Shown one piece after another: positions 17,540-64,000 of a stretch of DNA of 64,000 nucleotides. The DNA is taken from contig NW_026250407.1 in NCBI RefSeq assembly GCF_024521635.1, positions 1,240,001 to 1,304,000 of the forward strand, read 5' to 3'. Origin of the DNA: Tricharina praecox. Taxonomy: Eukaryota. The position numbers and the translations under genes were made by a program. Position 1 is the stretch's first letter. Each line of letters opens with the position of its first letter. The notes under the pieces were generated by a model. That model did not search any database. It had not been told where the DNA came from and saw only the letters and a list, made by a program, of their open reading frames with translations.

Positions 17540-18690
17540 ACACCAACGCCCCCCGAAAAAGAAAAAGAAAAAAGTAATATTGAAATGCATAGATCTGGGA
17601 ATAAGGGTGAAGTAGGGTTGGCTGCTGGGGAGTTTTTCAGTTCAATTTTTTCATGGATCTGCATGAGAATCATCGCATCGGTTTCTGTTTTTTCTCGGCC
17701 TGTGCCTAGTCGGATCTTGCGATGGTTTCACCCCCTTCTTTGCGGTGTCTGGGGGAGCCTTCAAGTTCTTTCTTATGCGTTTCTCGTTTGTTTTTTTCTG
17801 TCGTTGTGTCCTGCTTTTCTTTCTTTCTCTTGCCTTGAAGGTTTTCTTTCTTAAATTGTAGTTTTAGGCACATGTAGTGGAATCGAAGCAAAAGACTGGT
17901 TTTAGCCACGAAGCTGTGCAGACCAGACCAGCACCCATGGCGGTGCAGACTGGTATGTACATATAAACGGACTGCGGTCAGGTGCTCATATGTACCTCAC
18001 GGGCCGACTTACCGTGCGCACTGGGGGATTCCGGCCGTTTCTGCCGCGACATTACGGGAGTGCTACCGGTGTGTACTAGTAGTTATGCCTACCGTCACCA
18101 GACTCCAGTCGACATGCGATGTGGCCGCTCGTGCGGAAAGTCGAAACACGCGGCAAGTTTAGGGACTGGCAGTATAGTACCTACCATAGTACAGCCGGAA
18201 TCCGGAAATACCTTTTCTCCGCATCGGCCGCCGCCGCCGCTAATGCCCGCACATACGCAACTACTACCAAGAATAGTACCGTAGAGCAACCGGGACGAAA
18301 TGGGATCATGATGGAGTCAATCACGGTCCACAATTCGTGATGTGATGTGATACCGATACCTTTCAAATTTCAAGCATGCATGCATGCGTGCGGATAGCTC
18401 CACCAGACTCCAGAGTCCAGTGTACATACATGGCCAGGCTTTCCATTGTCCAGTGTCCAGTGTCCGCTGTCCGGTCCGAGGCGGACCCGTGGTTTCGGAT
18501 TTCTCGCCCGAGTGTGCTCGTGGAATCTACATACCGTACAGCGAGGATCGGGGTTCTCAGCGGGGCGGCCGGCCTGTAGTCCGGTCCGCTAACCGGCGTG
18601 TACACCTGTTCAGGCTGGGAGCGATTTCGGAAAGCCCACGGCACAGGACTGTAACAGAGCGGGCGGGTAGGGGACCCAAGGCTCGAGGTT

Positions 18691-18978
18691 GATATGGGCG
18701 GATATAGGGGGATATGGGTGGATATGGATTGATATGGGTGGATATGTGAGGATATGGGTGAATATGGATTGATATGTGAGGATATGGATTGATATCGGTG
18801 GATGCGGATTGATATTGGTGAATATGTGATGATATGGATTGATCTGGATTAATATGGTTGGATATGGGAGGATACGGATTGATATGGGTGTATATAGGTG
18901 GATATGTGAGGATACGGATTGATATAGGTGGACATGTGAGGAATATACACCCATATCAATCCATATCCTCACATATCC
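18691..18978. repeat. 10-bp-period minisatellite (GATATGNNNN, ~25 units) with three inverted units at the right end
   Basis: GATATGGGTG/GATATGGATT/GATATGTGAG units at 18691-18940; 18948-18978 is the reverse complement of three units. Confidence 0.85.
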
Positions 18979-29635: not shown

Positions 29636-29894
29636 TATCCCCTTGGGTGGCATTCCGGGGTGGGGCACTACCTACAGTGCATTAGCGTGTGTAATATGAA
29701 TTAGCGTGGAAGGTTCACGCCAGTAGTAGTATAGCGTATTGAATTCAGGGTCAGTAGTAGTATAGTGCATTTTGGCAGCGAACCTATCTCAATACACTAT
29801 ATTACTATTGGCTTGAATTATCCACGCTAATGCACATTGCACACGCTAATGCACTGTACGTAGTACCCCACCCGGAATGCCACACAAGGGGATA
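29636..29894. mobile_element. Putative MITE / foldback element, TA-flanked
   Basis: Arms 29636-29742 and 29789-29894 are ~106-bp imperfect inverted repeats (TATCCCCTTG.GTGGCATTCCGGG...CAGTGCATTAGCGTGTG...), with TA at both outer ends. Confidence 0.65.
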
Positions 29895-31314: not shown

Positions 31315-33861
31315 CTACGAAGCATACCTCCATTGGCCGCTCTTCCTAGCGCCATGATGTAGATGAGCATCGCTAGCGCGGTGGGCCCTTCTAGCCGCGG
31401 AGACTGTCGGCGGCACTGGCGCGACATAGTCCTTTTCGTACTGCTCCTGATAGGTGTAGTCCCTGATATCCTTCTCCGGCTTGCTGGATCTTGGTAGTTG
31501 TTGATCCCTATTAGGCGGAGGGCCGCGGCTAGGATCCCTGGGGTGATGATAGGCGGCAGCGGCGGCGGCGGAGGAGTTCGAGGGGTGGTGCGGGGTGGTA
31601 GCCCTAGTCGGCGGACTGGGGTCTTCATATCTGCTCAGCGCCCACATATTAGTCTTCTCTTCGACGGTGTATTCGAGTACTGGCGGTGCCGGCGGCGGCG
31701 ACGCGCCGTATCCAATAACGTGCAGTGACTCATACAATCCATCGCCCTCGTATTTCCGCCCGTAGCCGTCGTACTTGACGTCGTCGTAATCGTCGTCGCT
31801 GTAGCGGTCCGGGCTGTCGTCGCGCCGCCGCCGCACGCTGCGGCCCCGCTTCGCCGCGTGCCGTGCAGATGAGTCTTTGGCCGAGCCGCCCTTGGGCTTG
31901 ACGCTACGTGAGCGCGTGGGCGGCCGCGGTGGCTCCTCGCCTAGCGTCGGCCGCGGGTTGACCTCGTCCCGTCTGGCGTCTTCCCTCCAGCCGGGGGGAG
32001 GCCCGGGGGGAGCGGGGGAGTAGGGAGAACGGTATCGGTCGACTGGAGAGTTGTCTTTCTCCTCGGCGGTCAAGAAGTCCTGAGGGTCGGGGACGACGTT
32101 GGTGGTGGAGTATGGGCGCGAAGTGCGTTTCCGTGTGAGGGAGGGGGGAGCGGGCGATGGAGGATCCTTCGGGCCGTTGTCCTCCGGCGGAGTATCCGAC
32201 GGCCCGTCTCCGCGGACGGAATATCCTCTCCTCCTCGGCTTCTCCGGCTCGGGGAGGCCTAGAGGAACCTTACGCTCATCGTCCGAGTCCTGTGATTCCT
32301 CAGGATAGTCCTCGCGGACGGCTTGCCACCAGCCCTGATAGATAGCACGATCCTCCGTTTGGGGAAAGCATTCCCGAGGAATCATCTTGGGCATCTCGGT
32401 CCCCTGGTCGAAGATGGTCCACTGGTCCAAGACCCGAGAAATACGGTGCCATTCGCGGTGCGGCGCCGTCATCAACTGGGTGAACATCCACACCTCGAAT
32501 CCGCGAGGCGTAAGCCCGGGCAGAGTGGGAGGCTGGTTCGGCTTGGTGGGCACTAGATGATGTTCGACATTAAGGGCACAGAAGAGCTCGGACAGGATCT
32601 TGGGAGAACGCAAGTTGAAGAATCCTGCGAGACCGGTTAGGCAAAAGAATTATAAAAAAGAAAAGAAAAAAAGAAAGAAAACAATCGACGGGATGACAAA
32701 CGTTGCCACTCAGACTCTTCACCCTCTCCTACGGCAAAGGTATTGTAGAACTGAATCAACTTTCCCAGAGTCACCACGCAGCTCTGCGTAGGCTCCAATA
32801 ACGCAACCTATCGCAGCGTTAGTGTCCACTCACTCTCACATTCCTGCCTCAGCGATCGTGTGACATACCATGTAAGCGGCGATTCCGCGGAAAAGCGCGA
32901 CCAGCTTCGGCTTCGGCCTCGGCTCGCGTCCAGGTGCGACCTCAACCAACGGGCCACCCCACAGTTCCCAGGCATGTGCCATGTCATGGGACTTGTTGCT
33001 TCCGAACGACATCTCGGACATCTGCGCGGACACTTTCCTCGCCGGTTCCGGGCGTCCCGACGGAGCCGGAGCCGGCGTTTTAGATGGTGGTGGTGGGGCG
33101 GGTGCCGGCGGCGGGGCCGGGGCCTCGGGTGCGAAAGCTCCGGGCATCGGCCCCGGCGCTGGGGTCTTCGACTTGGGCGGCGGGTGGAGAGGTGGGTGGC
33201 CGCGGCCTTGCGATGGCGGGGGAGCCGGCGCGGGGGGAGGGGGGGATACCTCGCCGCTGTGTGACGATGGGCCGGGCCGGCCGTAGTGGTAGCCGTAAGG
33301 GGGATAACCGTAGTGCATGGGCGGACCCCTAGCCGAGTGCGGGACCCCGTGTGGCGGTGGCATGCCCATCGAAGTGTCGATCCGGGGCGGAGGCGAGCTA
33401 GGGGGTGGAGGAGCCGGCATTGCCGGCACGGCGGGCGCCGGTGCGGGCGACGCGGTCTTGCCCATCTTGAGCCGGTTGAGCTGGTCGATCATGCCCTGGA
33501 GCTGTTCGGGCGACATGTCGTTGAACGGCGCTGGGCTGGCCGAGGGCGCGGGAGCAGGCGGCGGGCCGGGAGGCGGAGGTGCAGGCGGCATCGGTGGGTA
33601 GTCGAGAGGCGGGGGATGGCCGCTGCCTGGCGTGGGAGGAGGACCGGCGCTTGGCGGAGGCATGCCATAGTAGTGGGCGCCGGGCGGCGGGGCATACTGC
33701 GACGGGCTCGGAAACGGGGCGGTAGTATGCGGTCTCGCGGGGGAAGGGCCCGGTGATTGCGGAGGAGGAGGATGGGGGGGGTATCCGGCGGGAGGGTAGC
33801 CGGGCGGGCCATAATAGGAGGCGCGAGCGGGGTCATAGGGGGGGTAGCCGGCATAACTCAT
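31315..33861 (-). CDS. Proline-rich fungal protein with a conserved central domain (resembles DUF7514-type proteins)
   Basis: Introns 32808-32868 and 32625-32701 join a Pro-rich N-terminus to ...PGLTPRGFEVWM...APHREWHRI...MPKMIPRECFP. Family call is from memory of the motif. Confidence 0.8.
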
Positions 33862-36556: not shown

Positions 36557-39113
36557 GTACCCATCGAGTCATCGAGCCATCCAGCCATTGAGCCATCCAG
36601 CCATCCAGCCATTGAGTCATTAATCAATGGACGGTACCGATCGTGCTCATCGAGTCATCGACAGCTTTTCTCCTCCATCTGGAAAAGTATATACATCGCA
36701 GGCTCCGAGCAGCTAGTTCAACTGCAGGTGATCGATCAATGAAGTCCACCAGTGCCACCCACCACCCGAAACCTTCCAGTGAACTGTGAGGCACATTCGC
36801 CCGGGTATGCCCACTCCCACGATCGAATCCGTTCAAACAAACGGAAACGGAAACGGAAACGAATACAGCCGGATGCAGCTAGTCCTACCGTAGAGTAGAG
36901 TACTTATCAACTCGGGCGGGCCGCTGGCTGATGAATGTCTACCGTACCATAGGTATTACACCCTGCGGCCTGTCGTCCGGTCTGTTGGTCCCGCTTTCGC
37001 CCGCACCACTCTTGAGTCTCGCGCCAGAGATAGGCATGGTTATGGGGAACGATGTGCTCGCTGCCGGACGAATTGCACGGTGTATATGATTAGGTTGTGA
37101 TCCTCTGGCACGCCCTAAAACTCTACGGCGGAAGCTCTCCGCACCGCTGCACACTCCATTCGCCGCGGCCACAGCCCGCACGTCCGGTCTCGCCACTATC
37201 TTCTCGGCCCAATGAAGTCAACGACGAGCTAGGAAACAATCAGAAACTCGAGGCGATCACCCCACTCCCCCCACCCCACTTCACTCCACTCCTTCTGGTC
37301 CGAATCGATTCAACTAAACTCGGCGGCCGAATGATTGGTGATGCTGCGGTGGCACCTCTCAACGGCTACGGAATCGAATGCAGGTGGGTGGGTGGCTGGA
37401 TTGATGGTACGCTCCACAATCGATAATCGAACATCAAACCACTGGTGCTGTTATTGACCGACTAAGTAACGCTACTGCTAGGGTGGTGGGAGTGGGGTGA
37501 GGACGTGCGGTAGGATAGTAGGTATAGGTGATGAGGAGATTGTAACTTTCTGCACAGTACATCACTCGCTGCAAAGACTGGAATGTGTGTTGGAATGTGT
37601 GCACAAGTACCTATTGTATTGTTTGAGTCTGAAAGCCTCGAGAGAAGACAGAAAAGACGGGTGGTAGTCGGCCAGTGCGGCAGTGCTTCACACCGTCATG
37701 ACCACGAAAGCGACTAAGCAACGAGTGAGATATTACAAGAATGTGGGTGGGATATCACTCGTTCTGCGGAAGTAAGTAAAAAGTAGGTAACTGGTCGTGG
37801 GGCGGTATTTGGAGCAGCCAGCTGTTGACAAGCGGCACACCCTTGGAAGAGTCACCCATTATACGGACGATTAACAACGACGCCCCGGGCCCGGCTAAAA
37901 GTACGTCATTCAGGCACGGAAGCACATCGCCACTCTTCGCCGAAGAGAGCCCGAGATCACCATCGAATCTCAGGATCAGATCATCTGATGGCGGCCGGCA
38001 TACAAAGGCGTCCCCGGAACGAGATGGTAACCGAATAAGCGGCACCTCCACCACCTCCACCACTACCACCACCGGCCCGCCAAGTTCCAACTTGGAGACT
38101 GATCTAAAAGAACAAACGCAAAACTCAAGGATTTATTTTTAAGAGACGCCGAATTCGGACCCCGCACATGATGATTATCACTAAGCCCTCCTTCACATCC
38201 TCATTTTGCATTGCCTCCGAAAAGCTTCCTCGTTCCGCTGTCTGTGTAGAGCTCAGTGTATTAGCTACATGTCCTACGTCTTGTTCGGTGGTAGTAATCG
38301 GTGACATACCTGGTAAATTTACTGCTGGAACGGCGTTCCCACCCAGCGTGGAATCCACCGCAGTGTCGTTAGTTTCCACAGCGCCCATGCGCTTCGCTTC
38401 CCCCCCCCCCTCCGGTCTCTAGAAAACATTCCTATTCTCAAAGGAAACTAGGAGCTCGTAGCTCTTTGGGTCCGAAGATTCCCTGGTGAGTTCGGCAGGT
38501 GAAGGACCGACCTGCTGGTATAGTCTCGTTGCCCCCTTCTTCCAGCAAGAAATTTAGAACAACAAGTCAGGACATTACCTCAGTTGTAGATGCCCAGGAA
38601 AATGGGCAGTTCTAGGTAACCAGCCTGGAAAATGTGGCAAGTGTAGTGTCCACGGCGTGACCGCGAGAACCTAATGGTTGGTTAGCTACATAAGCCGCGG
38701 CAGTGATACCAGTTGAGTGGCAACTTACTACTCTGAAGCGCAGGGGGAAATCATTCCCCCCGCTGTGGATGTGGTTCCCGGCGTGTTGCCGGGAAACGTC
38801 GCCGTGCCGCTGCGGCGGCAGGGCGAGCGGGCGCAGCCCGTGAGGATCTGCGGGAACTCTGTATCCCGACGACAATCCTCACATACGTCCCCGAAGGGAG
38901 GGGGCAAAAATGATTTACCCCGGCTGTGGGCGTCGTCCCCGGCTTGTTGCGGAGAAATCCAGTCTTGCTTCGCGTTCCCCTCCCTCCAAAGTCCAAACAC
39001 GCCACAACGTTTCCCTTCTCGAAGGAAACCGGGAGCTAGTGGAACATAGGGATGGAAAACGCCCCGGTGAGTTCGGCGAGGGAAGGCCCAAGGGCCAACC
39101 TGCTGGTGTTTTG

Positions 39114-40570
39114 CCTCCCTTGCCTCCTCCCCGACGCTTCCTAGTCCCAGTCCCGTTGTCTGTGTAGAACCCAATGTATTAGCTGCATATTGATGGGACA
39201 GGCAGAGATTTCGAAGCAATTGTTGTGGGTTGGATACCAACTGGCAACTTACGTCCCCGAAGGGAGGGGGGGAAACTATTCCCCCCACTGTGGTACGTTC
39301 CCCGAAGGGAGGGGGGAAATCATTCGCCCCGATGCCGGCGCGAACCCCGGTTGGTTATCGGCAGCGACGACGGGCCGCGGCTGCGTATAACGGCCCTCAT
39401 GGGGCTGGTCAGTGGCCGCTGAGACGCACTCAGACAACATCTGGTCGAACTGGTTGGTTAGCTACATAAGCCGCGGTAGTGATACGAAGTGGCAACTTAC
39501 CTCCCCGAAGGGTTGGGGGAAATCATACCCCCAAAGCACCCCGATAGCAAAGTCGAAACGATTCGGTCGATCAAGAAGTAGAATTTCTAATCCGGGTGTC
39601 GTCTACTTCTTGTTGCGGACCCAGCAGGTCATGATCGGCGGGCGCTGCGGGCCATCTCCCATGAGTGAGTCGGCCTGGTCCGCGGGGGTAGCATCACTAG
39701 TGGCCCTGCCCTTGCCACGCATCTTGGGGGTCTGCTTCTTGAGGAGGCGGTGGATCGTGTCCATCTATTCAAGAATAAGGTTAGTCAATATTGAGAGGAA
39801 AGAAGAAGAGAATTATCACCTTCTCCTCTTCCAGTTTCTGGTCGGTGAGGTTCTTGCGGCGGCGAGCCATTTCAGCCCTCCTGAGCTCCTGCCCTTGGGC
39901 AGAGAGCGTCACCGCCTTATTGGCGCGCGGCTTTTCTGTCCAGAAGTCAGTAGAGAAAGTCGAACCAGAAACCGGATTCATACCGAAAGTACTCGGGAGC
40001 TCCAGCAGTTCTGCGGTGGTGATGTCTCCCATTCTGGTGAGCTGACGGTTGGTCAAGCGGCTCATGTCTGGCGTACCAGTCCTGCTCAAAAGTTGGGGGT
40101 GGTTCCATCGTCATCGGAATCCATCAGCTCATCGTCGGTCTCCCCTTCGGCATCGTCGTCTCCGTTATCATCGTCGTCGGATTCTTCCTGGATGATCTTT
40201 CTGCCACGGGGGAAACAATTCCCCCCACTGTGGTAAGGTCCCCCGAAGGGAGGGGGGAAATCATTCCCCCCGATGCCGGTGCGATCCCCGGCTAGTTACT
40301 GGCAGCGTCGACGGGCCGCGGCTGCGTAAAACTGCCCTCATGGGGCTGATGCTGGCCACTGGCCGTTTGGTGAAATTGTTGATGGTGGCTAATGTCGATG
40401 TTGATGTATGTGTTGAGGATAGCGAGAGGAGAGAGAGCGGAGAGGGGGAAGAGAGGAGCCTTTTATAAGAAAGTGGGTGCGGCTTGGTGCGGACTGTGTC
40501 GCCGGTGCGGCTGGTGCGAGTTGGTGTGGCCGGTGCGGAGCCCGCATCCCCACACACGCTGGAGAACTAG
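39114..40570 (-). repeat. Left arm of ~1.45-kb inverted repeat (partner 57928-59381)
   Basis: The reverse complement matches 57928-59381, and the mirrored ORFs are identical apart from a one-codon indel and few substitutions. Confidence 0.95.
39603..40203 (-). pseudogene. IES2: Fragment of INO80 subunit Ies2 (PAPA-1 domain), copy in element A
   Basis: Mirror of 58295-58892: RRAEMARRRKNLTDQKLEEEK|intron|MDTIHRLLKKQTPK. Confidence 0.8.
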
Positions 40571-40784
40571 GTAACAGTGTCAAACTTTAGTCGGCCACAT
40601 ACGTCGGCACGAATAAGGTTTCGTGGTGGAAGGTCGAAACCGAGTCTTGACGGCCGCGACGAAGTGTCGACGAGCATATGGTTACGCGGCAGCGGCGAAC
40701 TTTAGGCGGCACTTTAAGAAAGCGGGTACGACTTGGTGTGGCTAGTGCTGATCTTGCATCTCCGCACGAGAACTAGGTAACAGT

Positions 40785-41289
40785 AGGTACATACCTCGAG
40801 CGTCGAATCCTTCATCCACCACATCAGATTTGCGTGCAGCTTCGCAGTTCGAAACCTCCATGGATTATGGATACCGACCAGTCCCCCTTCCAGCTTGACA
40901 CTGTGAAGGTACCTACATACTACATAGCCCGCCGATTATTATCTTATCTTCTCACCTCACGATTTGGCCGGCTATCAAGTAACATACTACCTACATGTAG
41001 GCGGGTATATTGTCTTTTTCGCCGTGTGCCTTCACTGGCTCTCACTCGCCACTCTACTCTACACACCCAGGCCCCTAGTCCAAATCCAGTCCCGTCCATC
41101 ACTATCACCATCGGCCAACTGCGATCCACCCGGCGGCGTGTGGAGTGAACAGATGAGCAAGTTTATTTCTCCCCTTTTTGCCGCCGACGTATGGTGAAGA
41201 TACCTGGATAGAACGGTCATTTATTCCGCATCCCTGACAGACAGCGGAAGAAAAGAAAACGTGCTCAAACGAGCGCATTGAATTTTGTA
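40785..41289 (+). repeat. 505-bp direct repeat, copy 1 (partner 57213-57717)
   Basis: Appears identical at offset 16428; ORFs 40834/57262 and 40964/57392 are identical. Confidence 0.95.
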
Positions 41290-41822
41290 CTGCTTGGCGG
41301 TTGGGTGTGGTGGGGCCGGGGGATGTCGGTGGGGACCTAGAGGGGGGACTCTGGATTGGGGCTCAAATTTGCACGAACAGCCGCTGCCGGCGGAACGTTT
41401 TATTTCTATGTCTTCGCTCGCCAAAGTATACTGCACCGACTCCGGGCAGCCCTATGTACGTCCGTCCGACGCCACGTCTGGCATGCAATGCTTACATACA
41501 TACACCTGGATGAATTGCATCCGTGGGAGTAAAAGAAGTTGCATTAGGCACCTAGTTCGGTATTCCTATTTCAACTAGCCGGCAATTACCGGTGAGATGC
41601 TGGAGGGGAGGGGGGACGCATATGCGCTGGTTTCGTGCGCATAAACACGACCGATTAGGCTGCTATTCGAGCTCAATCGACCGCGACCCTCAACCCTCAA
41701 CCCGCGCAGATAGTCTTTGAATGGTCGGCCAAATATATTCCCACGACTTCCCCGGCAACCTCGTAGACTTGCATCCGTCCGTCACGACAAACCAACGACC
41801 ATCAACAGCAACAATAACCGAA

Positions 41823-43804
41823 ATGAGTCTCCACGACCTATCGGAACGGCACTCGTCAACCCACACGGGCGGGGATGGCAAAGGGACCGGAACCTGGCAC
41901 TGGGGATACGGCTGGCAAACAGTGCCGTGTGTGGGCGTCGAGGCGTACTGTGGGTACATGGATTTGTACTTTAACATGCACGATCTGACCATGCTATACA
42001 CGTACGTACCTGCGGTTGTTTGTCTCCCCCGTGGGGTTGGATGCAACTGACATGGGGGGTGTGATCAAGGTTTTTCCTGTGGTGGGTTGTCGCTGGCCTT
42101 GTTCTCGCGGTTGGGGCGTTACGATTCTGGGCGAGGAGAAAGAGCGCGGCTGGGACAGTGGATGTGGAGGGTCGCAGATGTGGAAAAGGAGGTGTGGTGA
42201 AGGCGCTCCGTGCGAGTATTGTCGCGGCGAGGAGGAGGGGACTGAGGCAGGGGTTTTTACTGGGGACGTTTAAGGGCGTGACGAGGGTTCAGATCACGGT
42301 CTTGGTTATGGTGGTGATATACCTTGCTATATTCTCGTTTGTGCCCCGATTATTCTACTCCAGCGTGGAGTAGTACCTACCGATGGCTGAACGTTGCGAG
42401 GACAGTTTCATCGGCGGGACGTACAACAAAGTAATCCAGGAAGCTACAAAGAAGCGTACCGAACTCGGCTGGTGGTCTAATCGGGTCGGCTCGCTCGCCT
42501 TCGCGCTGACGCCGCTGACACTGATCCTCTCGATGCGGGAGAACATCTTCTCGCTGATCACCGGAATTCCGCACCAGCACTTCAACTTCATGCACCGGGT
42601 CCTTGGCTGGATCATCTTCGCACAGAGCCTTCTTCACACAATCGGCTGGACAGTCGTGCAGGGTTACTTCTTCGAGCCACAGACGCAGCCGCAGTATCTG
42701 GCGATCCAGTGGAAGGAGCGCTACTACAAGTGGGGGTTCGTCGCGCAGATGCTCCTGGCGTTTCTGTGGGTCGGGAGTCTATCCCCGGTCGTGCGGAGGA
42801 TCGGCCACGAGGCGTTCCGGAAGAGCCACTATGTCCTAGCCGTGTTGTACCTGGGCGGCTGCTGGGGCCACTGGCCGGAGATGAAGGAGTGGATGATTGC
42901 CAGTATCGTGGTGTTTTTTTTCGATCGCGGGTGCAGGTTTCTCCGGATCACGCTCATTCACTGCGGGATGAAATCCAAGACTGCCGGCTTTGGGTTCAAG
43001 TACGCGGCTGCTAAGACCGTGACGGAAACGGACGCCGATGGGACACATGTCGTCGTGTTGAGACTCCTCGCGAAGCCGCTGCACTACGTTCCCGGCCAGC
43101 ACTTCTTCCTCACGTTCCCGAGTATCACCCTTCTACAGTCGCACCCGTTCACCCCCGCTGTCGTCAATGGCCACGAGCAGGTGTACGTGATCGTCGGGAT
43201 GGCAGGAGAAACGGGCCGATTAGTGGAAGCGGCACGAGCCGGAAGTGAAGGGGGACTACCAGTGATTCTATGTGGACCGTACGGTTCCCCGCGGGTGATC
43301 GACAATGGCGCGGAAAACTTCCTACTCGTGGCAGGAGGAACAGGAGTATCATTTACACTTCCCCTACTGGCGGCTTTGGTCGAGAAGAAGACAGCCGGAA
43401 AGCTCCACTTCGTGTGGATCATCCGCCGACTAGAGAATCTGGCCTGGATCCGTGCAGAGCTATTAGCATTAATCGATACGGCACTCAACAGTAAGCTTAC
43501 GCTTCAGGTGGTTATTTATATCACCAGAGATGGCGAGGCGGTGGCCCCGACGTTGAGCGAGACAGATAGTACGCATGGACTGGAGAAGTATGCTGCCTAT
43601 GGCCGTCCTATGTGCAAGGAAGTTGTGGCGGCGTTTAGGGAGAGTACCGCTGGTGGCGGTAGATCCCAGGTGCTAGCAAGTGGGCCTGCAGGAATGGGGA
43701 GGGAATTGAGGGACGCAGTCGCAGAATCAAACGACGCAGCGAAGGTGTGGAGGGGTCAGGAAGCGTCGGATGTGGGCCTGTACTGGGATAGCCGGTATTG
43801 GTGA
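41823..43804 (+). CDS. Ferric/cupric reductase-like transmembrane flavocytochrome (FRE/NOX family)
   Basis: Heme His pairs (HRVLG...LLHT; SHY...WGH), HPFT FAD motif, GPYG, AGGTG NADPH motif. Introns ~42002-42069 and ~42336-42405. Start is ATG 41823 (alternative 41721). Confidence 0.88.
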
Positions 43805-54379: not shown

Positions 54380-55710
54380 GAGTTCCTCGGCGTGTGCGGG
54401 GATGGGGGGGGTTGCGGGGATGCGGCCTCAGTACCGGCCGCACCGACCGCACCAAGCCACACCCGCCTTTCTTATAAAAGGCTCCTTTTCCCCCCCTTTC
54501 TTATAAAAGGCTCCTTTTCCCCCCCTCTCCGCTCTCTCTCCTCTATCTATCTCTCCTCAACATAGACATCAACATCAACCACTATCAACAATTTCACGCA
54601 ACGGCACTGGCCAGCCCCATCAGCCCCATGAGGGCAGTTGTACGCCGCCGCGGCAGGAAGATACTTACTCGCAACAATCCGGGGTTCTCAACCACAGCCG
54701 GGGCAAATAGTTCCCCCCCTTCGGGGACGTCGGCCACGTAAGTTGCCACTTAACGAGTATCACTGCCGCGGCCTATATAGCTTAGGTGAAGCCGACGCTT
54801 GCTGCCTGTACTAGAGAGATGTTGACCAAGAGTTAGGAATTAGAATGATTACGCCAACTACTCCCTACGTCCTAGGGTTGGCCCAATCCCCGCAGCAAGA
54901 ATCTTCCACTTGCTCTCCATCACCGCCATTAATCTTCCACCGGTGACCTTCCAGTGGTTTTGCCCGATGTCGAGGTGCTTGGAGGGAATGATTTCCCCAT
55001 CCCTTCGGGGAAGTAAGTTGCCACTTAGTATCACTGCCACGGCGTATGTAGCTAACCAACCATCAGGTTCTCGCGGCCACGCAGTGGACCTGGCCAGTTT
55101 GCCTGGCAAGGTCTGCGTTTGCGTCGGGCTCGCGGCTTACGGCCGCTTGCCCTGCCGAAACGATATTTCCCGGCAAATTGCCGGGGTATCGCACCCACAT
55201 CGGGGGGGAACTATTCCCCCCATCCCTTCGCGGATGCGGATGTAAGTTGCCACTTAGTATCACTGCCACGGCGTATGTAGCTAATCAACCATCAGGCTCT
55301 CGCTGCTGATAAGTGGGCCTGCCAGTTTTCCTGGCAAGGTCCACGTCTGCGCCCGGTTCGCAGGCGACTTTGGGCTTCGTGGGCTGGCGGCCGTGGGCTT
55401 TCTTACTTTGTTGGAGCGCTTCAGCGTCTGGTAGAGAGCTGGGTGGATACTGGAGATATGCTAGATTGATGATGAGGAATACAATGGTCTTGAACCGTTG
55501 GGGTGGGGTGCTGTCGTCTGGATAATCTCCATGTTCGGGGTCCGAAGTCGGCGTTTTTTGAAAATAATTACTTGAGTTCTGCGTTTGGTCTTTTAAATCA
55601 GTCTCCAAGTTTGCGGGGTGGCGGTGGTGCCACCCATTCATCGGCCTTCTCGTTCCCGGAGACGCCTTTGTGTGCCGGGTACCATCTGATCTCGATGGTG
55701 ATCGGTCTGT
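54380..55710 (+). mobile_element. Modular gene-fragment-carrying repeat element, copy B
   Basis: Leader with tandemly duplicated TATAAAAGG (54473, 54502), palindrome+intron units (donors 54738, 55013, 55242) and tail module ~55400-55700. Confidence 0.65.
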
Positions 55711-57006
55711 GTAATCGACAGTTCTGGGAGTTGTGGGTCAGCCGCGCGCGTTAATTTCAATGATAATCTCAGGTTCGGCGATGTCTTTTCGTGTCTCGAT
55801 GGCGTACTTCTGGCCGGGGCTTGGGGTGTCGTGGGTCAGTCTTGAAATTGCCACTTGCACCTCTGTGTTGATGGTGACTCGGTCAAGGGTATACCGCCGC
55901 TCGGCCGCACAATTCGCGATCACATCACGTCTTTGGAGTGGCGCCAGTACCTTACCGTGGTGGAGTCTATTCCCCTCAGGTGGCGACCGGCCGCAAAATC
56001 TAGATAGGTAAACTACACTAATGACGAGTATCGGTCAGTGCCGGTGATATTTTTTTAGCAGGCGTACCGCTTGTCGTGGTACCGTCTGCGCACGGCGCCA
56101 TACTTACAGTACTGCGCAGGAAACAGTGGTACAGTACCGCACTGCCCGGTATCAGCGTGCCTCGCCATGACGCCGGTGCGGAGGGTAGAGGGTTAGTCAC
56201 AGACTGGGAAAACCCGCGCCGGAGGAGAGACGCTGTACAGCGTAAGACTGGTCGGTTCGCCACGGCCTGCACATACTCATATCGGTACAGCCAGCGGTAC
56301 CGTTTCCTTCCTGTTCAGTGGGCGGTGGATCTACTATCCATAATGCTCATATCGTAGTCACGAAGGAATCTACCACGTCCTAGGTACATACCAATGATGA
56401 TGGTGGAGAATTGGTCTGCTTCATGTATCACTTGTTCGAGAGTTTCTAACCTATCTCACCTGAAGCAAAAACATTAACAAGTCACCACATAAGCAATTAA
56501 CCCGTGTTTTGCATCTTTCCATACTTCATAAAGTGCCAGAATGTACGCAAGGAGCCTAGATCAGATGAATTGATGTTGTTGGTGTTGCTTGGTACGGACT
56601 GTGTCAGATCACGGCGTCTGGAGGATATGAAGGATCTCTCCTCATGTTCGCTGTAAGGCGCTGGCAATGGTGATTTTTCAAGGAGCACTATTTGAAGGAG
56701 TCAAGGACTCAGCCATGCGAACTTTATCCGGAGGAGGAAATTTGTTCTGGTTTCTGATCTCGCCGGCGTGTCGATCTCCAAATGGCAGACATATTCTGCA
56801 TATTTAGAAGGGTACCGGGCCCGGAAAAGAGGAAGCAAGCAATAAACAGTTACATCTTCCTACATATCCTCCTGTCGAACGTAGTATATTTGACGGACGG
56901 GTATGTGCTACATTACATCTTTTAGGATTTAGGACTGTCGTGCCCTGTCACAGTGCTTTCGAATATGTACCTAAGTAATTCTTCAGCTTGTGCGCGGATG
57001 GGGGCG

Positions 57007-57084
57007 TGCGGGGATGCGGGGATGCGGGGATGCGGGGATGCGGGGATGCGGGGATGCGGGGATGCGGGGATGCGGGGATGCGGG
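57007..57084 (+). repeat. (GCGGGGAT)n tandem expansion, ~10 units, of a leader motif
   Basis: Directly visible. The same 8-mer occurs once or twice at the start of leaders B, C and D. Confidence 0.9.
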
Positions 57085-57212
57085 GAATCTGGGCTCAGCA
57101 CCAGCCGCACCAAGCCGCACCAAGCCACCCCCGCTTTCTTGAAGTGCCGCCTAAAGTTCGCCGCCGACGCGTAACCATATCCTCGTCGATACTCCGCAGC
57201 CGTCCAGATTCG

Positions 57213-57717
57213 AGGTACATACCTCGAGCGTCGAATCCTTCATCCACCACATCAGATTTGCGTGCAGCTTCGCAGTTCGAAACCTCCATGGATTATGGAT
57301 ACCGACCAGTCCCCCTTCCAGCTTGACACTGTGAAGGTACCTACATACTACATAGCCCGCCGATTATTATCTTATCTTCTCACCTCACGATTTGGCCGGC
57401 TATCAAGTAACATACTACCTACATGTAGGCGGGTATATTGTCTTTTTCGCCGTGTGCCTTCACTGGCTCTCACTCGCCACTCTACTCTACACACCCAGGC
57501 CCCTAGTCCAAATCCAGTCCCGTCCATCACTATCACCATCGGCCAACTGCGATCCACCCGGCGGCGTGTGGAGTGAACAGATGAGCAAGTTTATTTCTCC
57601 CCTTTTTGCCGCCGACGTATGGTGAAGATACCTGGATAGAACGGTCATTTATTCCGCATCCCTGACAGACAGCGGAAGAAAAGAAAACGTGCTCAAACGA
57701 GCGCATTGAATTTTGTA
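57213..57717 (+). repeat. 505-bp direct repeat, copy 2
   Basis: Appears identical to 40785-41289. Confidence 0.95.
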
Positions 57718-58030
57718 TTGACACTTTTATCTATCTCCTCACAACTGCGGAAATCTCGCCCTTGGAATAGTTGCTGATGAACAAGTTTTCCTCAGTGTCG
57801 TCACATAGGGTAACTGTTCATCCTCAGCCACTTATCCAATCTCAGATAATAACCTGCAGGAGGGTAGAGGTGAGGGCGGGGGGGCGGGGGGCGGGGGCGG
57901 GGAAGCCCTAAATTTCCGGCCGCGTGACTAGTTCTTCAGCGTGTGCGGGGATGCGGGCTCCGCACCGGCCACACCAACTCGCACCAGCCGCACCGGCGAC
58001 ACAGTCCGCACCAAGCCGCACCCACTTTCT

Positions 58031-58039
58031 TATAAAAGG
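58031..58039 (+). promoter_or_regulatory. TATA box (TATAAAAGG) in the conserved element leader; also at 54473, 54502, 60501 and 40467-40459 on the minus strand
   Basis: Consensus TATA followed by a CT-rich tract and a CA-rich UTR-like stretch ending at a conserved CCCCATG. Confidence 0.6.
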
Positions 58040-58294
58040 CTCCTCTCCTCCCCCTCTCCGCTCTCTCTCCTCTCGCTATCCTCAACACATACATCAACAT
58101 CGACATTAACCACCATCAACAATTTCACCAAACGGCCAGTGGCCAGCATCAGCCCCATGAGGGCAGTTTTACGCAGCCGCGGCCCGTCGACGCTGCCAGT
58201 AACTAGCCGGGGATCGCACCGGCATCGGGGGGAATGATTTCCCCCCTCCCTTCGGGGGACCTTACCACAGTGGGGGGAATTGTTTCCCCCGTGG

Positions 58295-58892
58295 CAGAAA
58301 GATCATCCAGGAAGAATCCGACGACGATGATAACGGAGACGACGATGCCGAAGGGGAGACCGACGATGAGCTGATGGATTCCGATGACGATGGAACCACC
58401 CCCAACTTTTGAGCAGGACTGGTACGCCAGACATGAGCCGCTTGACCAACCGTCAGCTCACCAGAATGGGAGACATCACCGCAGAACTGCTGGAGCTCCC
58501 GAGTACTTTCGGTATGAATCCGGTTTCTGGTTCGACTTTCTCTACTGACTTCTGGACAGAAAAGCCGCGCGCCAATAAGGCGGTGACGCTCTCTGCCCAA
58601 GGGCAGGAGCTCAGGAGGGCTGAAATGGCTCGCCGCCGCAAGAACCTCACCGACCAGAAACTGGAAGAGGAGAAGGTGATAATTCTCTTCTTCTTTCCTC
58701 TCAATATTGACTAACCTTATTCTTGAATAGATGGACACGATCCACCGCCTCCTCAAGAAGCAGACCCCCAAGATGCGTGGCAAGGGCAGGGCCACTAGTG
58801 ATGCTACCCCCGCGGACCAGGCCGACTCACTCATGGGAGATGGCCCGCAGCGCCCGCCGATCATGACCTGCTGGGTCCGCAACAAGAAGTAG
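58295..58892 (+). pseudogene. IES2: Fragment of INO80 subunit Ies2 (acidic region plus PAPA-1 domain) with retained intron
   Basis: DDDAEGETDDELMDSDDD...SRTGTPDMSRLTNRQ...RRAEMARRRKNLTDQKLEEEK|intron 58676-58730|MDTIHRLLKKQTPK...MTCWVRNKK*. Frameshift near 58408, stop at 58890-58892, no N-terminus. Confidence 0.82.
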
Positions 58893-59443
58893 ACGACACC
58901 CGGATTAGAAATTCTACTTCTTGATCGACCGAATCGTTTCGACTTTGCTATCGGGGTGCTTTGGGGGTATGATTTCCCCCAACCCTTCGGGGAGGTAAGT
59001 TGCCACTTCGTATCACTACCGCGGCTTATGTAGCTAACCAACCAGTTCGACCAGATGTTGTCTGAGTGCGTCTCAGCGGCCACTGACCAGCCCCATGAGG
59101 GCCGTTATACGCAGCCGCGGCCCGTCGTCGCTGCCGATAACCAACCGGGGTTCGCGCCGGCATCGGGGCGAATGATTTCCCCCCTCCCTTCGGGGAACGT
59201 ACCACAGTGGGGGGAATAGTTTCCCCCCCTCCCTTCGGGGACGTAAGTTGCCAGTTGGTATCCAACCCACAACAATTGCTTCGAAATCTCTGCCTGTCCC
59301 ATCAATATGCAGCTAATACATTGGGTTCTACACAGACAACGGGACTGGGACTAGGAAGCGTCGGGGAGGAGGCAAGGGAGGTTAAACGAGGATGTGAAGG
59401 AGGGCTTAGTGATAATCATCATGTGCGGGGTCCGAAGTCGGCG

Positions 59444-59572
59444 GAGACTCTAGAGAGTATGGCCACCCTTGCCAAGGCTCTTGCTGCCAAAGACTACAAC
59501 ACCGCGGGTAACATCCAGGTGAATTTGTTGACCAACAAGACCGCCGAGTGCACACAATGGATGACGGGAGTC
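59444..59572 (+). pseudogene. SEC31: Fragment of the COPII subunit Sec31 C-terminal domain
   Basis: ETLESMATLAKALAAKDYNTAGNIQVNLLTNKTAECTQWMTGV resembles the conserved Sec31/SRA1 C-terminus, and it is absent at the homologous site in copies A, B and D. Confidence 0.72.
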
Positions 59573-60109
59573 ATCTTGAAAATAATATCTTGATTTCTGT
59601 GTTTGTTCATTTGAATCAGTCTCCAAGTTAGCGGGGTAGTGATGGTGCCGCTCATTCATCTGCCTTCTCGTTCCCTGGGATGTCTTTGTGTGTTGGGCAC
59701 CATCTGATCTCGACAATGGTGGGTGGAGGACAGTCGAGAGTCGATACCTTCATACCTGCATTGTACGTTTTGTCCGATTAACACCTCACGATCAGGTAAG
59801 TACCTACATACACACCTCCATAATACTTCTCACTTGAGCAAAACTTTTTTTGTTTAATCAGTGATTGCTTGCGACCTATGTAAGTATGTAGATCATGACA
59901 AGATATTTACACACTCCGGTTCCACGTCATTGCCCAACCCGATAGTCATCAAGCGGCCCAATGTGAATTTCACGCCCTCCGGCTCGGCCTGTCCTAGCTA
60001 CGAAGACACTTCTACGTAATCAAGTAAGTAGGTACCCGCTGGTTAATCCCTCCGCATATCGTCTGCGATTCACCACCATGTATGTATCTAAAATAGAACC
60101 CGCCTACCA

Positions 60110-61480
60110 GTCCTGCCCTGCCACAGTGCTCTTGAATATGTACCTACTGTTTGTTGAAATATATGGATAGAACGACAGAGATAATTAATTTGATACAGAA
60201 AAAACCTATTATTAGTGGCGAGGCCTGACTTTACATACGAGACTGAGGTGCCGCCTAAAGTTCGCCGCCGCGTAACCATACTCGGTCTCGACATTCCACT
60301 GCGAAACCATATTCGTGTAGACATCTCTGGCCGACTAAAGTTTGACACTGTTACTTTGCTCTTCAGCGCGTGCGGGGATGGATGCGCACTCAGCACCGGC
60401 CGCAGCAAGTGGCACTGGCCGCAGTAAGTGTCACAGGCCGCACCAAGTCGAACCGGCCGCACCGGCCGCACCACGTCGGAGCCAAGCCGCCCCGCTTTTT
60501 TATAAAAGGCTCCGCCCTCTCCGCTCTCTCCGCTCTCCCCTATCTCTCTCCTCAACACAGACATCATCATCAACATCAACCACCATCAGCAAACCCAGCG
60601 GCCACTGGTCAGCCCCATCAGCCCCATGAGGGTCGTTATACGCAGCCGCGACAGGAAGATACTTCCTCGCAATAATGTGGGGATCTTACCCACAGCTGGG
60701 GAATAATTTCCCCCCTCCCTTCGGGGACGTAAGTTGCCACTTAACTAGTATCACTGCCGCGCGGCTTATATAGCTAGCCAACCATTCCGATCAGCTCCTG
60801 CACAATCCCCACTCCGGAGAAAAATTAGAATGATTACGCCAACTACTCCCTCGTCTCCGGGGAAACGATCCCGAGCTCCGCCTTTCGCTCTTCGCATCTG
60901 CCGTCCGAGGACTCGATGCGTACCGCCTGAGAATTGTTCGACCTCCTGGAGTTGGCCCCATCCCCGCGGCAACAGTGATGTCGTCCGATGTCAGGGTGCT
61001 TGGGGGGAATGATTTCCCCCATCCCTTCGGGGAGGTAAGTTGCCACTTAGTATCACTGCCACGGCGTATGTAGCTAATAAACCATCAGGTTCTCGCAGCT
61101 GAGCAGTGGACCTGCCAGTTTGCCTGGCAAGGTCCGCGTCTGCGCCCGCTTCGCAGGCGACCTTTAGCTTCGTGGGCGGGCGGCCATAGAATATCTTGCT
61201 TTGTTGGAGCGCTTCGGCGTCTGGTAAAAAGCTGGGTGGACACTGGATATTTGCTGGATTGATGATGAGGAATACAATGGTCTTGGACCGTGGGGTGGGG
61301 TACTGTCTTCTGGATAATCTCCATGTTCGGGGTCCGAAGTCGGCGTTTTTTGAAAATAATTACTTGAGTTCTGCTTTTGGTCTTTTAAATCAGTCTCCAA
61401 GTTTGCGGGGTGGCGGTGGTGCCACCCATTCATCGGCCTTCTCATTCCCGGAGACGCCTTTGTGTGCCGGGCATCATCCG
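60110..61480 (+). mobile_element. Modular gene-fragment-carrying repeat element, copy D
   Basis: Upstream module 60110-60360, TATA at 60501, donors at 60729 and 61035, and tail module 61190-61480 closely matching 55400-55690. Confidence 0.65.
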
Positions 61481-64000
61481 AGTGGGTCTGCTGCGCGCGT
61501 TCTGTCTGTGATCTCGTCGTCCATGGTGACTGTGCAATCCGGTGCTCAGCTTCAGCTTCGTCCAATAGCACTGTCTCCGCTGTCCGTCCGGGATTCCCTA
61601 GGAAGGTAACCATCCGTTGTCCGAAGGCGCTGTCCGCTCCTACGAGGTCTCTCGCCTAGTTTCCCTTCAGGAGGCTGAGAAGTCCGAGGGCGAGGCGCCT
61701 ATCCCGGTCAAGCTGTGCTGCTGCCCGTTCTCGACCGCCTAAATACATTGTTTGCACGAGTAAGGTTGCATGTCGTGAGTGATAAGCCGTGGCGCACCTG
61801 CTCGAAGCACTCTCCTGGAAATTCCGGGAGTTCCTCCCTTCTTGGGCAGTATACGTGCATACCAAATCAGCATTCACGATTGCCAAAACAAATCATTCTC
61901 CAGGTCTATTCATAGGTAGGACGTTGATGAGATTTTCACCAGCTACGGTCACAGAACCTTGAATACACGGATTCCCGTCCGTTCAGCCCTAGGTGCATAC
62001 CTACATGTTAAGCAAGGTATCGCCAGGCTGTAGTACCGAGTACTGCAATGGGTGACCATGTGGGAATCCCTGGTAACTAACGTAGTTTCTACTTTGCCAT
62101 GGCGTACAAGTGGTGGCCCGACCTCTCCATTGGCGGCCAGGTGAGGCAAGATGTCATGCCACAAGCAAGTTGTTTACAGTTACCGGTATCATGCTGCTGG
62201 CAGGACATTGGTGACATACTTACCTGCTTACATACCGGTGCGGCAGCTGTGCCACAAGAATTTATATTTCCAATCTACCAACCAGACGAACCGCTTACAC
62301 GGTCCACCGATCTGGCCTCCGCAAAGCCATTTCTAGAGTACTCCAACATCGATTTGGCATCGCGGGTAATCCTCTACACACATAGCCGCGCGGTCCCTCC
62401 CATCTCCTCCTCCCCCTTGCCCCGGCTAGCACAGTCGCTCGTAACTACCTATTATTTCACGGTATTTACTGGCGACACTGAACGGTCTGTTCGATTATGA
62501 ATATCACTGCGCACGTGACCTCCACGGCATCGTAGAGTACTACTACTATTATTACCTAGTACCAGTACAAACATGGTAACGACACGCTAAATATGAGTCC
62601 AGGCACCAAGTGGGTATGTACTCATGTAGGTCGTAGATCTCGACCGCGGAAACCAGCGACGAAACCACAACACCAGATCCGCACCGTCTCGGTTTAAGGT
62701 TGCTGTCAGCGCACCAGGTATGTACCTACAATATACATGACTATCGCCCACGCAGTCCAGGGTATGCTACTCTCCTCTATGTACCAACATAGTTACATTG
62801 AGCGCACTACTCTTCTAGGTAACTATCATAGGCATGTTGTTATCATATCGACATACCTTCATACATACCCGGCACATGCGTGGGTACATACGGTACATAC
62901 GGTATTTACCTAGCCGCCCACGTTATGTAAAGCCACGCCCGGATCCATGCCAGCGTCAAGCATGCATGAAACTCGGCTCCGTTACATACGATCGCTTCAG
63001 CATCCCCGTCAGTCTCCCCGCGCGAGAGAGGGGCAACAGGGCAGGGCGCAGCGGCGCTCCATTCCTTTCCCTTCAATTTTTGCCTCTTTTTCCTTCAGGT
63101 CGCGGGGGAAAACAGCCCAGCCCGGGGCTGGATTCGGCGGGTGATGATGTGAATCGACCCGGAACGAATGCGGGTTTGCTAAAAGGGTTTCTGTCTTCTT
63201 TTCGCTTTCTCTTTCTCTTCCTGTTTTTGATTTTCACTCTTCGACGCCGCGGGGGTATGTACATAGAGTACGGTGCTCGCGCGCGCGCGGTTGCAGTTAT
63301 GCTTATATTTGCAGATTATATAGGTACCTAGTAAGTTACCTAGAGGTCCGCCGCCGGTACGTTTAGCCTGGCTGATCCAAGACCGGTGCTGCGGGCGAGG
63401 GGGGAGGGCGCCTCTGAAACCGTTTATGTACGAACACAGTTCTGCGACGGCGTGTGTATGAGCCACGGTCGTCCATGGGTTTCGTGTGCTATGTAAACCT
63501 ACCTGTGGGCGGTTTTTTCCTTTTCCTTTCTTTTGTTTCGGTGCAGTGGGAGTGCCATTGCCATTGGTGGGGTTCGGTTTCGTTGGAGACGATTGGAGAG
63601 GCGAGGAGGAGGAGGGACTCGGGAGGAGGTATATATGCTCGAGAATGTTGTTTCGTTTAGGCAAGAAGGAGTGGGCGGAGGACACAGACACGGAGAAGGT
63701 GAAGGAGAAGGGAAGGAGAATGTACTGCACATATGTAGTTCTGCGGCCCGTGAGTTCTCGGTTGGCTCTTCGAAGGCGGCGGTGGTGAGCCAAGATGTAC
63801 ATACGGTACATGCGGTACATTCAAGCGTCAAACGAGTCTGAAGACATCGTGCAAGGGTAGATATCCGTTCTCTGTGCAGTGATGACCCTAAAACGTCCTA
63901 GACTGCCACATACCACCCCCACCCACCCACGCCCGGCCAGTGGCCAGTGGACGTTGGTATGTATATAGGATCGTATACCCCTCTCCTCTCCCCTCACCTC

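Follow-up and report, generated by a model that had tools for sequence, protein, structure and literature searches.

Why should a short palindrome recur many times in a small part of a fungal genome, with its arms kept and its centre changed, and why should most copies stand next to a second hairpin and the start of an intron? We addressed this question with 64,000 nucleotides of Tricharina praecox (contig NW_026250407.1, positions 1,240,001 to 1,304,000 of the forward strand), hereafter the window; all positions given below are those of the whole window, and all counts refer to it. The palindrome (hairpin 1), a hairpin with a C(UUCG)G loop (hairpin 2) and an intron-like piece of about 54 nt together form a cassette, which is found in two clusters (37983-40784 and 54395-61487). 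A preliminary description of the locus had regarded the intron as possibly introner-like and had taken the stem-specific conservation as a sign of a functional RNA or single-stranded DNA (ssDNA) structure or of a palindromic protein-binding site. The reading that we favour, with a probability of roughly 0.5, is that the cassette belongs to a lineage-specific, locally amplified and probably non-coding unit whose palindromes drive template switching at the DNA level.

The exact palindrome GGGGGAA-N3/4-TTCCCCC occurs nine times, against 0.00 occurrences expected by chance. Three of the nine (39268, 40208 and 40253) are copies of those at 59210, 58273 and 58228 carried by an inverted duplicate, which leaves six independent perfect copies. 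A looser scan (6-bp arms, one mismatch) gave 17 sites within the two clusters and one unrelated site at 32361; the 17 sites consist of 12 independent modules, named A1-A3, B1-B5, C1, C2, D1 and D2, and five duplicates. Perfect arms of 7-8 bp were found in 6 of the 12 modules, and one or two uncompensated arm changes in the remaining 6 (A1 at 54701, A2 at 54983, B3 at 58964, B4 at 59167, C1 at 60698 and D2 at 38921). On the sense strand the loops read TGAT in six modules, TAGT/ATAG in two, and TAAT, TTGT, CTA and TCAT in one each, and the spacer between the arms is 3, 4 or 5 nt long. The segment of hairpin 2, CCCTTCGGGG, occurs 13 times exactly and the intron start with its donor, GTAAGTTGCCA, 10 times. 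Module A2 (54982-55066, + strand) illustrates the anatomy: hairpin 1, whose arms mismatch at one position (GGAGGGAA..TTTCCCC), precedes CCCTTCGGGG, and a 54-nt GT..CAG piece with a GCTAAC branch site comes next. Some copies have a third hairpin upstream (55169-55185 with 7 bp and 38775-38795 with 8 bp). The cassette is therefore real, and its frequency is far beyond that expected by chance. The preliminary description had read this anatomy correctly, including the donor positions (all 10 exact donors are at positions that it listed), the GTATGT variant at 38886, which is present in D2, and the third hairpin of some units. Its statement that more than 12 palindromes keep their arms while the centre varies describes a real pattern with too high a count, the independent modules being 12 and the perfect ones 6.

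Self-comparison and alignments placed each module inside a repeated unit of 1.2-1.8 kb. The units and their modules are as follows.

54395-55695, + strand: unit A, with TATAAAA at 54473 and 54502, ATG at 54628, modules A1-A3 and then the conserved 3' block
54700-54719, + strand: hairpin of module A1 in unit A, donor at 54738
About 54982-54999, + strand: hairpin of module A2 in unit A, with hairpin 2 at 55001-55010 and the intron-like piece at 55013-55066
55203-55221, + strand: hairpin of module A3 in unit A, with hairpin 2 at 55224-55233 and the intron-like piece at 55242-55295
57928-59713, + strand: unit B, with TATAAAA at 58031, ATG at 58157, a second ATG at 59095 and modules B1-B5
58227-58257, + strand: module B1, no intron
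58273-58290, + strand: module B2, no hairpin 2 and no intron
58963-58992, + strand: module B3 in unit B, intron-like piece at 58995-59045/59054
59165-59195, + strand: module B4, no intron
59209-59240, + strand: module B5 in unit B, with a longer intron-like piece at 59243-59335
60280-61487, + strand: unit C, the most complete unit, with TATAAAA at 60501, ATG at 60626 and the end of the 3' block at about 61487
60698-60726, + strand: module C1 in unit C, intron-like piece at 60729-60794
61002-61032, + strand: module C2 in unit C, intron-like piece at 61035-61088
37983-40784, - strand: inverted cluster, with the duplicate 39108-40570 (copies of B1-B5), then D2, D1 and the shared 3' block to about 37983
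38901-38922, - strand: hairpin of module D2 in the inverted cluster, with hairpin 2 at 38889-38898 and GTATGT at 38886
38743-38760, - strand: hairpin of module D1 in the inverted cluster, intron-like piece from 38728 down to about 38671
56975-57212, + strand: partial unit start E, with (TGCGGGGA)x12 at 56991-57086, GCACCAAGCC repeats and a promoter-like piece without a TATA box
55499-55689 (+ strand), 61291-61481 (96% identical), 59517-59707 and 37983-38179 (- strand): conserved 3' block, with a small hairpin TTCGG-GGT-CCGAA and an AATAA-rich stretch

The order of elements is common to the units. Each starts with G-rich and CCGCACC-type short repeats, TATAAAA, a CT-rich tract and a CAACA-type leader, continues with the ATG of a 26-codon open reading frame (ORF) and with cassettes and variable cargo, and finishes with the conserved 3' block and its AATAA-rich stretch; two or three short GT..AG introns are predicted per unit. 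This layout suggests a small RNA polymerase II transcription unit, and the units may be transcribed and spliced. Homology among the four copies stops at about one common 3' point, and the last approximately 170 nt of units A and C have 5 differences compared with 28 in the preceding 221 nt. The homology thus covers the larger units, promoter-like and 3' parts included, and the copies are clustered, as in a local family of segmental duplications. Note that the 12 tandem copies of TGCGGGGA at the head of unit start E correspond to one or two copies at the same place in the other units; the GCGGGG within them presumably resembles C2H2 zinc-finger sites.

The cassette is best read as an internal sub-repeat of these units and not as an independently moving intron. 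All 10 exact GTAAGTTGCCA donors are preceded by a hairpin module, none being found in the other approximately 50 kb of the window, and all 8 matches to the intron core are in the clusters and behind hairpins. The 54-mer is nearly identical, as the preliminary description had it, in A2, A3 and C2 only (agreement at 52-53 of 54 positions). The other copies are diverged (B3, 44-46/54; D1, 48-50/58) or have altered or replaced 3' parts (A1, C1 and B5), and B1, B2 and B4 have no intron. Two intron subfamilies, with or without an AAC insert, are distributed independently of the upstream context, and A3 and D1 combine one context with different subfamilies. Recombination or patchy conversion can explain the conservation of the 54-mer, given this mismatch between subfamilies and flanks. 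The linkers between tandem modules (..GTACCACAG.. and ..CTTACCACAG..) resemble the end of the intron from branch site to acceptor, suggesting that they may be collapsed intron copies.

The units are probably non-coding, as judged from their reading frames. The region of the palindrome can be read as GGNDFPPPFG, and a protein search found no relative of this reading; in one search, 4 proteins among 46 candidates passed E 0.01, and all four matched in the Ies2-like acidic part and shared Ies2 motifs (for two of them the cluster name is Ino80 subunit 2). Units A and C are read in different frames, owing to the variable length of their G and C runs. Codon periodicity was absent between paralogues, where substitutions by codon position were 14/10/9 (p = 0.53), 4/5/4 (p = 0.93) and 3/6/5 (p = 0.61). 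The read-through ORF of 208 amino acids had no relative among 302 candidates, and the longest ORF common to A and C had two matches among 1.84 billion representatives, both to unrelated repeat proteins. A parental repeat-protein gene, whose codons would have accounted for the motif in another way, was thus looked for and not found. We also rejected an antisense ORF as a real gene, its product being 92% identical where the DNA is 96% identical, which indicates no constraint. Editing of the loop stops from A to I was considered and fits poorly: 6 of the 12 loops are UGAU, compared with the preference of fungal editing for U at position -1 and UAG given in the available portion of PMC11156358.

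The conserved stems were the main argument for a function of the structure. The pair of hairpins is predicted to form with -19.1 kcal/mol as RNA and with -10.4 kcal/mol as DNA, on either strand. In the 12 modules 89.5% of the cells pair, compared with 87.6% in shuffles (34 of 500 shuffles reach the observed value), and two stem pairs have double changes (23 of 500 shuffles), with 12 sequences in all. When the partner was slid by one column (-1), pairing rose to 92.2%, above the true register, because the arms are runs of G and C. The covariation term of RNAalifold was +0.67, with no significant signal in the 12 modules, and Rfam 15 gave no covariance-model match on the modules, either at E up to 1 or at the gathering score. 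With 12 sequences, stem-specific selection is not demonstrated by these pairing controls, although it may exist, and the step from conserved stems to function in the preliminary description is not shown. As a separate observation, hairpin-1 copies are self-complementary, so that any two of them are complementary to each other; the RNA of the tandem pair B1-B2 (58227-58290) is predicted to fold with a long-range helix of about 20 bp (-43.6 kcal/mol, z = -2.4), a second tandem pair is found at 59165-59228, and modules at separate exon ends could pair likewise. Double-hairpin elements of chytrid and Allomyces mitochondrial DNA, which are likewise present in several copies, consist of two GC-rich hairpins one after the other, and their stems are conserved while their loops vary. 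Those elements are mitochondrial, dispersed and without an intron, whereas the hairpins described here are nuclear and joined to a spliceosomal-type intron.

A role of the palindrome in ssDNA, which had been one of the first suggestions, is retained in the reading that we favour. At 18 of 20 positions hairpin A3 matches the reverse complement of A1, so that its CTA loop is an exact inversion of a TAG loop. The clusters (7385 nt) hold 27 perfect hairpins of at least 6 bp (3.66/kb), compared with 53 in the 56615 nt outside (0.94/kb), and 17 of the 27 remain when the 10 copies of hairpin 1 are set aside (Poisson p = 8e-4). Template switching during replication creates perfect stems, multi-base compensatory changes and inverted loops, according to the available part of PMC8794818, and it can therefore keep stems and invert loops without selection. 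We propose that the unit would have multiplied locally through tandem and inverted segmental duplication, and that the cassette would have multiplied again within the units. The G-run/C-run palindromes may form hairpins in ssDNA at replication or repair, and these may provoke template switching and breaks; template switching would then keep or restore perfect arms and flip or mutate the loops. Some intron copies would collapse to a remnant of 9-15 nt (..GTACCACAG..), recombination or conversion would shuffle cassettes between flanks, and filler DNA from other genes would be taken up at short shared sequences. The palindromes would thus be the cause of the rearrangements. As for the divergence between copies, repeat-induced point mutation was rejected as its cause, the spectrum being mixed (transition/transversion 22/16 and 43/25).

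Unit B contains two pieces of other genes, which are as follows.

58291-58950, + strand, sense: fragment of Ies2 (Ino80 complex, PAPA-1 domain) in unit B
59438-59572, + strand, sense: piece of the Sec31 C-terminus (SRA1 domain), 45 codons, 42 of 45 identical to Sec31 of a relative

Each piece begins at a palindrome, and neither is found outside unit B and its recent duplicate. The Ies2 fragment starts with PRGRKIIQEE within the last C's of hairpin B2, and at most a few C's can be common to the hairpin and the fragment at this junction. Part of the interior of the fragment is deleted and its frame is broken near 58400, but two introns, the stop (58890-58892) and about 60 nt of 3' flank remain. 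The Sec31 piece, which is missing from units A, C and D, was inserted after ..GAAGTCGGCG, where 6 nt (TCGGCG) are common to the unit consensus and the insert. A derivation of the motif from Ies2 or Sec31 codons was rejected, the native proteins being without the motif and the fragments only beginning at the palindromes; the 3' part of the unit was likewise rejected as a Sec31 3' end, the match being limited to 45 codons.

Two long copies in the window appear recent. In inverted orientation, the segment 39108-40570 repeats 57928-59387 over 1463 nt, from which it differs by 6 mismatches and a 3-nt indel (99.4% identity), and 40785-41292 is a direct copy of 57213-57720 over 508 bp with one mismatch (99.8%). 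The difference in orientation between the 1463-bp and the 508-bp copies indicates a complex rearrangement, and the pair may represent either a very recent event of this kind or an assembly problem. Both copies bracket about 13-17 kb with genes for a ferric reductase and a berberine bridge enzyme-like (BBE) oxidase.

These features are consistent with segmental duplications that contain chimeric pseudogenes and arise by template switching at short inverted repeats. The likeness, as far as the available text of PMC8794818 and PMC10766183 describes such duplications, includes direct and inverted local copies, mosaic junctions, perfect short stems and loop inversion, as well as gene pieces that start from palindromes, with 6 nt shared at the Sec31 junction here. 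In the same parts of these sources the repeats differ from ours, which holds a complete-looking intron beside the double hairpin, better conserved than its flanks. Outside the window, a metagenome scan for hairpin 2 with the donor gave seven loci, all of one unrelated conserved sequence without hairpin 1; a scan of viral contigs gave no match, and strings from the window had no match in a literature search. The seven metagenome contigs have in common a well-conserved sequence of about 250 nt that holds the searched 22-mer by chance.

Several observations weigh against template switching in a local repeat as the whole explanation. The confinement of the cassette to one neighbourhood rests on a single 64-kb window, and part of the differences in length of the G and C runs among copies may be sequencing error. 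The stem change from G-C to U-G in D2 is tolerated only in the RNA of the sense strand. The GTAAGT donor is present in all 8 intron-bearing modules (in silico), and the set of donor, branch site and acceptor is complete in 6 of the 8 (A2, A3, B3, B5, C2 and D1); in B5 a branch site and an acceptor recur in the replacement 3' part. Such complete signals suggest real, maintained splicing and hence possibly a working RNA. A2 and A3 have 1 difference in the 54 nt compared with 25 in 90 flanking nt (Fisher p = 3e-5), and the 54-mer also differs from its flanks in the pairs A3-C2 (p = 0.0016) and A2-D1 (p = 0.0026), the pair A2-C2 being not significant (p = 0.20). Selection or recent spread would explain this conservation as well as conversion does. 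Finally, both captured pieces are in the sense orientation relative to the unit.

This last observation and the two host-gene fragments with their introns would also fit a transposon that captures gene fragments (Helitron-like or Pack-type), of which the units would be non-autonomous copies, with the hairpins as recognition or termination signals near an end and the tandem cassettes as repeated termini. We consider this unlikely. The shared core is sharply bounded at hairpin 1 and variable at its other end, and Helitron2-type elements of Fusarium and other Pezizomycotina, in the portion of PMC5148889 available, have terminal hairpins, sometimes multiple 5' termini, and capture gene fragments. 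Here, however, similarity continues beyond every candidate end. In units A and C, the only inverted repeats that a scan revealed were pairs of one palindrome with another; terminal inverted repeats were not found, so that the mark of a TIR DNA transposon or MITE is missing as well. The FoHeli terminal motifs had 1 and 4 matches at three mismatches, which is chance level, with none in the clusters, and the unit ends share neither a 5' TC, hairpin and CTRR nor asymmetric repeats with ATTTT. Unlike the elements in that portion of PMC5148889, the locus thus lacks defined termini, asymmetric terminal inverted repeats, the ATTTT end and the FoHeli motifs, and a scan of 88 ORFs of the window revealed neither a Rep/Hel protein nor any domain of a Rep/helicase or transposase. 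All copies are in one neighbourhood, and the captured pieces are confined to unit B and its duplicate.

The double stem-loop could instead function as an RNA element, within a transcript that is spliced and either non-coding or of the micro-ORF kind. It would stand 1-2 nt ahead of the 5' splice site, carry the stop of a short ORF in loop 1, and control splicing or translation or bind a protein. In favour of this are the promoter-like start and the complete splice signals of each unit, the island-like conservation of the intron and the 3' block, and the formation of both hairpins in the predicted RNA fold; the U-G change in D2 would fit as well. The 26-codon ORF from the unit ATG closes exactly in the loop-1 stop in B1 (TGA, 58235), B4 (TGA, 59173) and C1 (TAA, 60704), and in the second exon of unit C a 60-codon ORF closes in the loop TGA (61010). 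The loop-stop frame was rejected as a coding frame and counts against this explanation, being the longest open upstream frame in only 4 of 10 modules. The explanation is further weakened by the missing covariation and Rfam match, by fold z-scores (-0.5 to -2.4) that are modest because the G and C runs also pair in shuffles, by the uncompensated mismatches in half of the modules, by a third hairpin of which only 2 of 7 aligned copies are perfect, and by palindromes that are equally stable as DNA on both strands. We regard it, too, as unlikely. A more far-reaching version, in which the units would be a young RNA family, spliced and either non-coding or with a micro-ORF, and would use the double stem-loop at the 5' splice site with its loop-1 stop as a protein-binding site, as a splicing or translation switch, or as a target of stop recoding in the sexual phase, while the 54-nt intron and its exon tag propagate as a cassette, seems rather improbable to us.

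Doubtful in the extreme is a self-propagating intron of the introner type, either with a short exon tag or inserting beside the double hairpin. The 54-mer is the best-conserved piece and occurs in at least three different flanking contexts, and modules without the intron exist (B1, B2 and B4). The sequences after filled and "empty" sites are non-homologous, however, and the linkers of B1 and B4 look like the 3' end of the intron, which indicates deletion rather than an empty site. The 54-mer was found without hairpins in 0 of 10 cases and in no unrelated gene of the window, and it has an ordinary length for a fungal intron and is unstructured (-5.2 kcal/mol, z = +1.49 against shuffles). The introner-like behaviour suspected at first is thus not seen in the window, where all donors belong to one repeated unit. 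The introner-like elements of Dothideomycetes are likewise highly similar spliceosomal-type introns, several in one fungal genome; in the available part of PMC3609843 they are found by the hundreds in unrelated genes, exceed ordinary introns in length and are predicted to fold stably, whereas the piece described here is of 54 nt, unstructured, tied to one exon end and limited to a single repeat family in the window. The sister (stw)introns of Hypoxylaceae, as the available part of PMC8469720 describes them, are also proliferated similar introns, in a Sordariomycete, with palindromes and without an Rfam entry. Their symmetry is internal to the intron, with 45-55 nt terminal inverted repeats and a WTTCTAGAAA palindrome, and they integrate seamlessly at new sites in unrelated genes; compared with what that part reports, the palindromes here are exonic and of a different sequence, and the flanks are shared.

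A double-stranded DNA site for a dimeric factor, with GGGGGAA/TTCCCCC as half-sites and a free spacer, is highly improbable: the arms are conserved, the centre is variable or inverted, and the promoter-like region contains G-rich repeats, for instance (TGCGGGGA)x12, but a spacer of 3, 4 or 5 nt would not suit a rigid dimer, the palindromes lie in the predicted transcribed part beside splice sites and not upstream, and we know of no fungal dimeric factor for these half-sites.

The window, as far as its sequence tells, is a nuclear region of a filamentous fungus, and its long ORFs encode (Pfam) a multicopper oxidase, the ferric reductase (42374-43804), the BBE/FAD oxidase, CLN3, DUF7514 and RINGv proteins. 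About 450 nt past unit C, a match to 5S rRNA (61941-62088, + strand) scored 45.5 bits against a gathering score of 38. It has 148 nt for a 120-nt model, with one loop of 14 nt for 1 and further inserts, and is probably a divergent or decayed 5S copy. A tRNA scan of the window found no genes. Two other repeats were noted: about 260 nt at 29636-29894 match their own reverse complement at 79% and form a long imperfect palindrome unrelated to the cassette, and 18689-18942 holds diverged tandem repeats in a register of about 10 nt, with 77-79% identity between shifted copies.

A pattern of "conserved stems, variable loops" calls for caution, since mutation mechanics alone can yield it. If the cassette proved to be dispersed or functional in RNA, it would represent a new kind of proliferating intron, and a propagating RNA module would be a new way of intron multiplication. 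If the palindromes do drive template switching in a local repeat, as we favour, the locus would be a compact natural case, in a fungal nuclear genome, in which short palindromes cause duplications, invert loops, collapse introns and lead to the capture of foreign gene pieces. A cassette of exon end plus intron would then multiply without a mobile intron, which would bear on the origin of new introns and chimeric transcripts.

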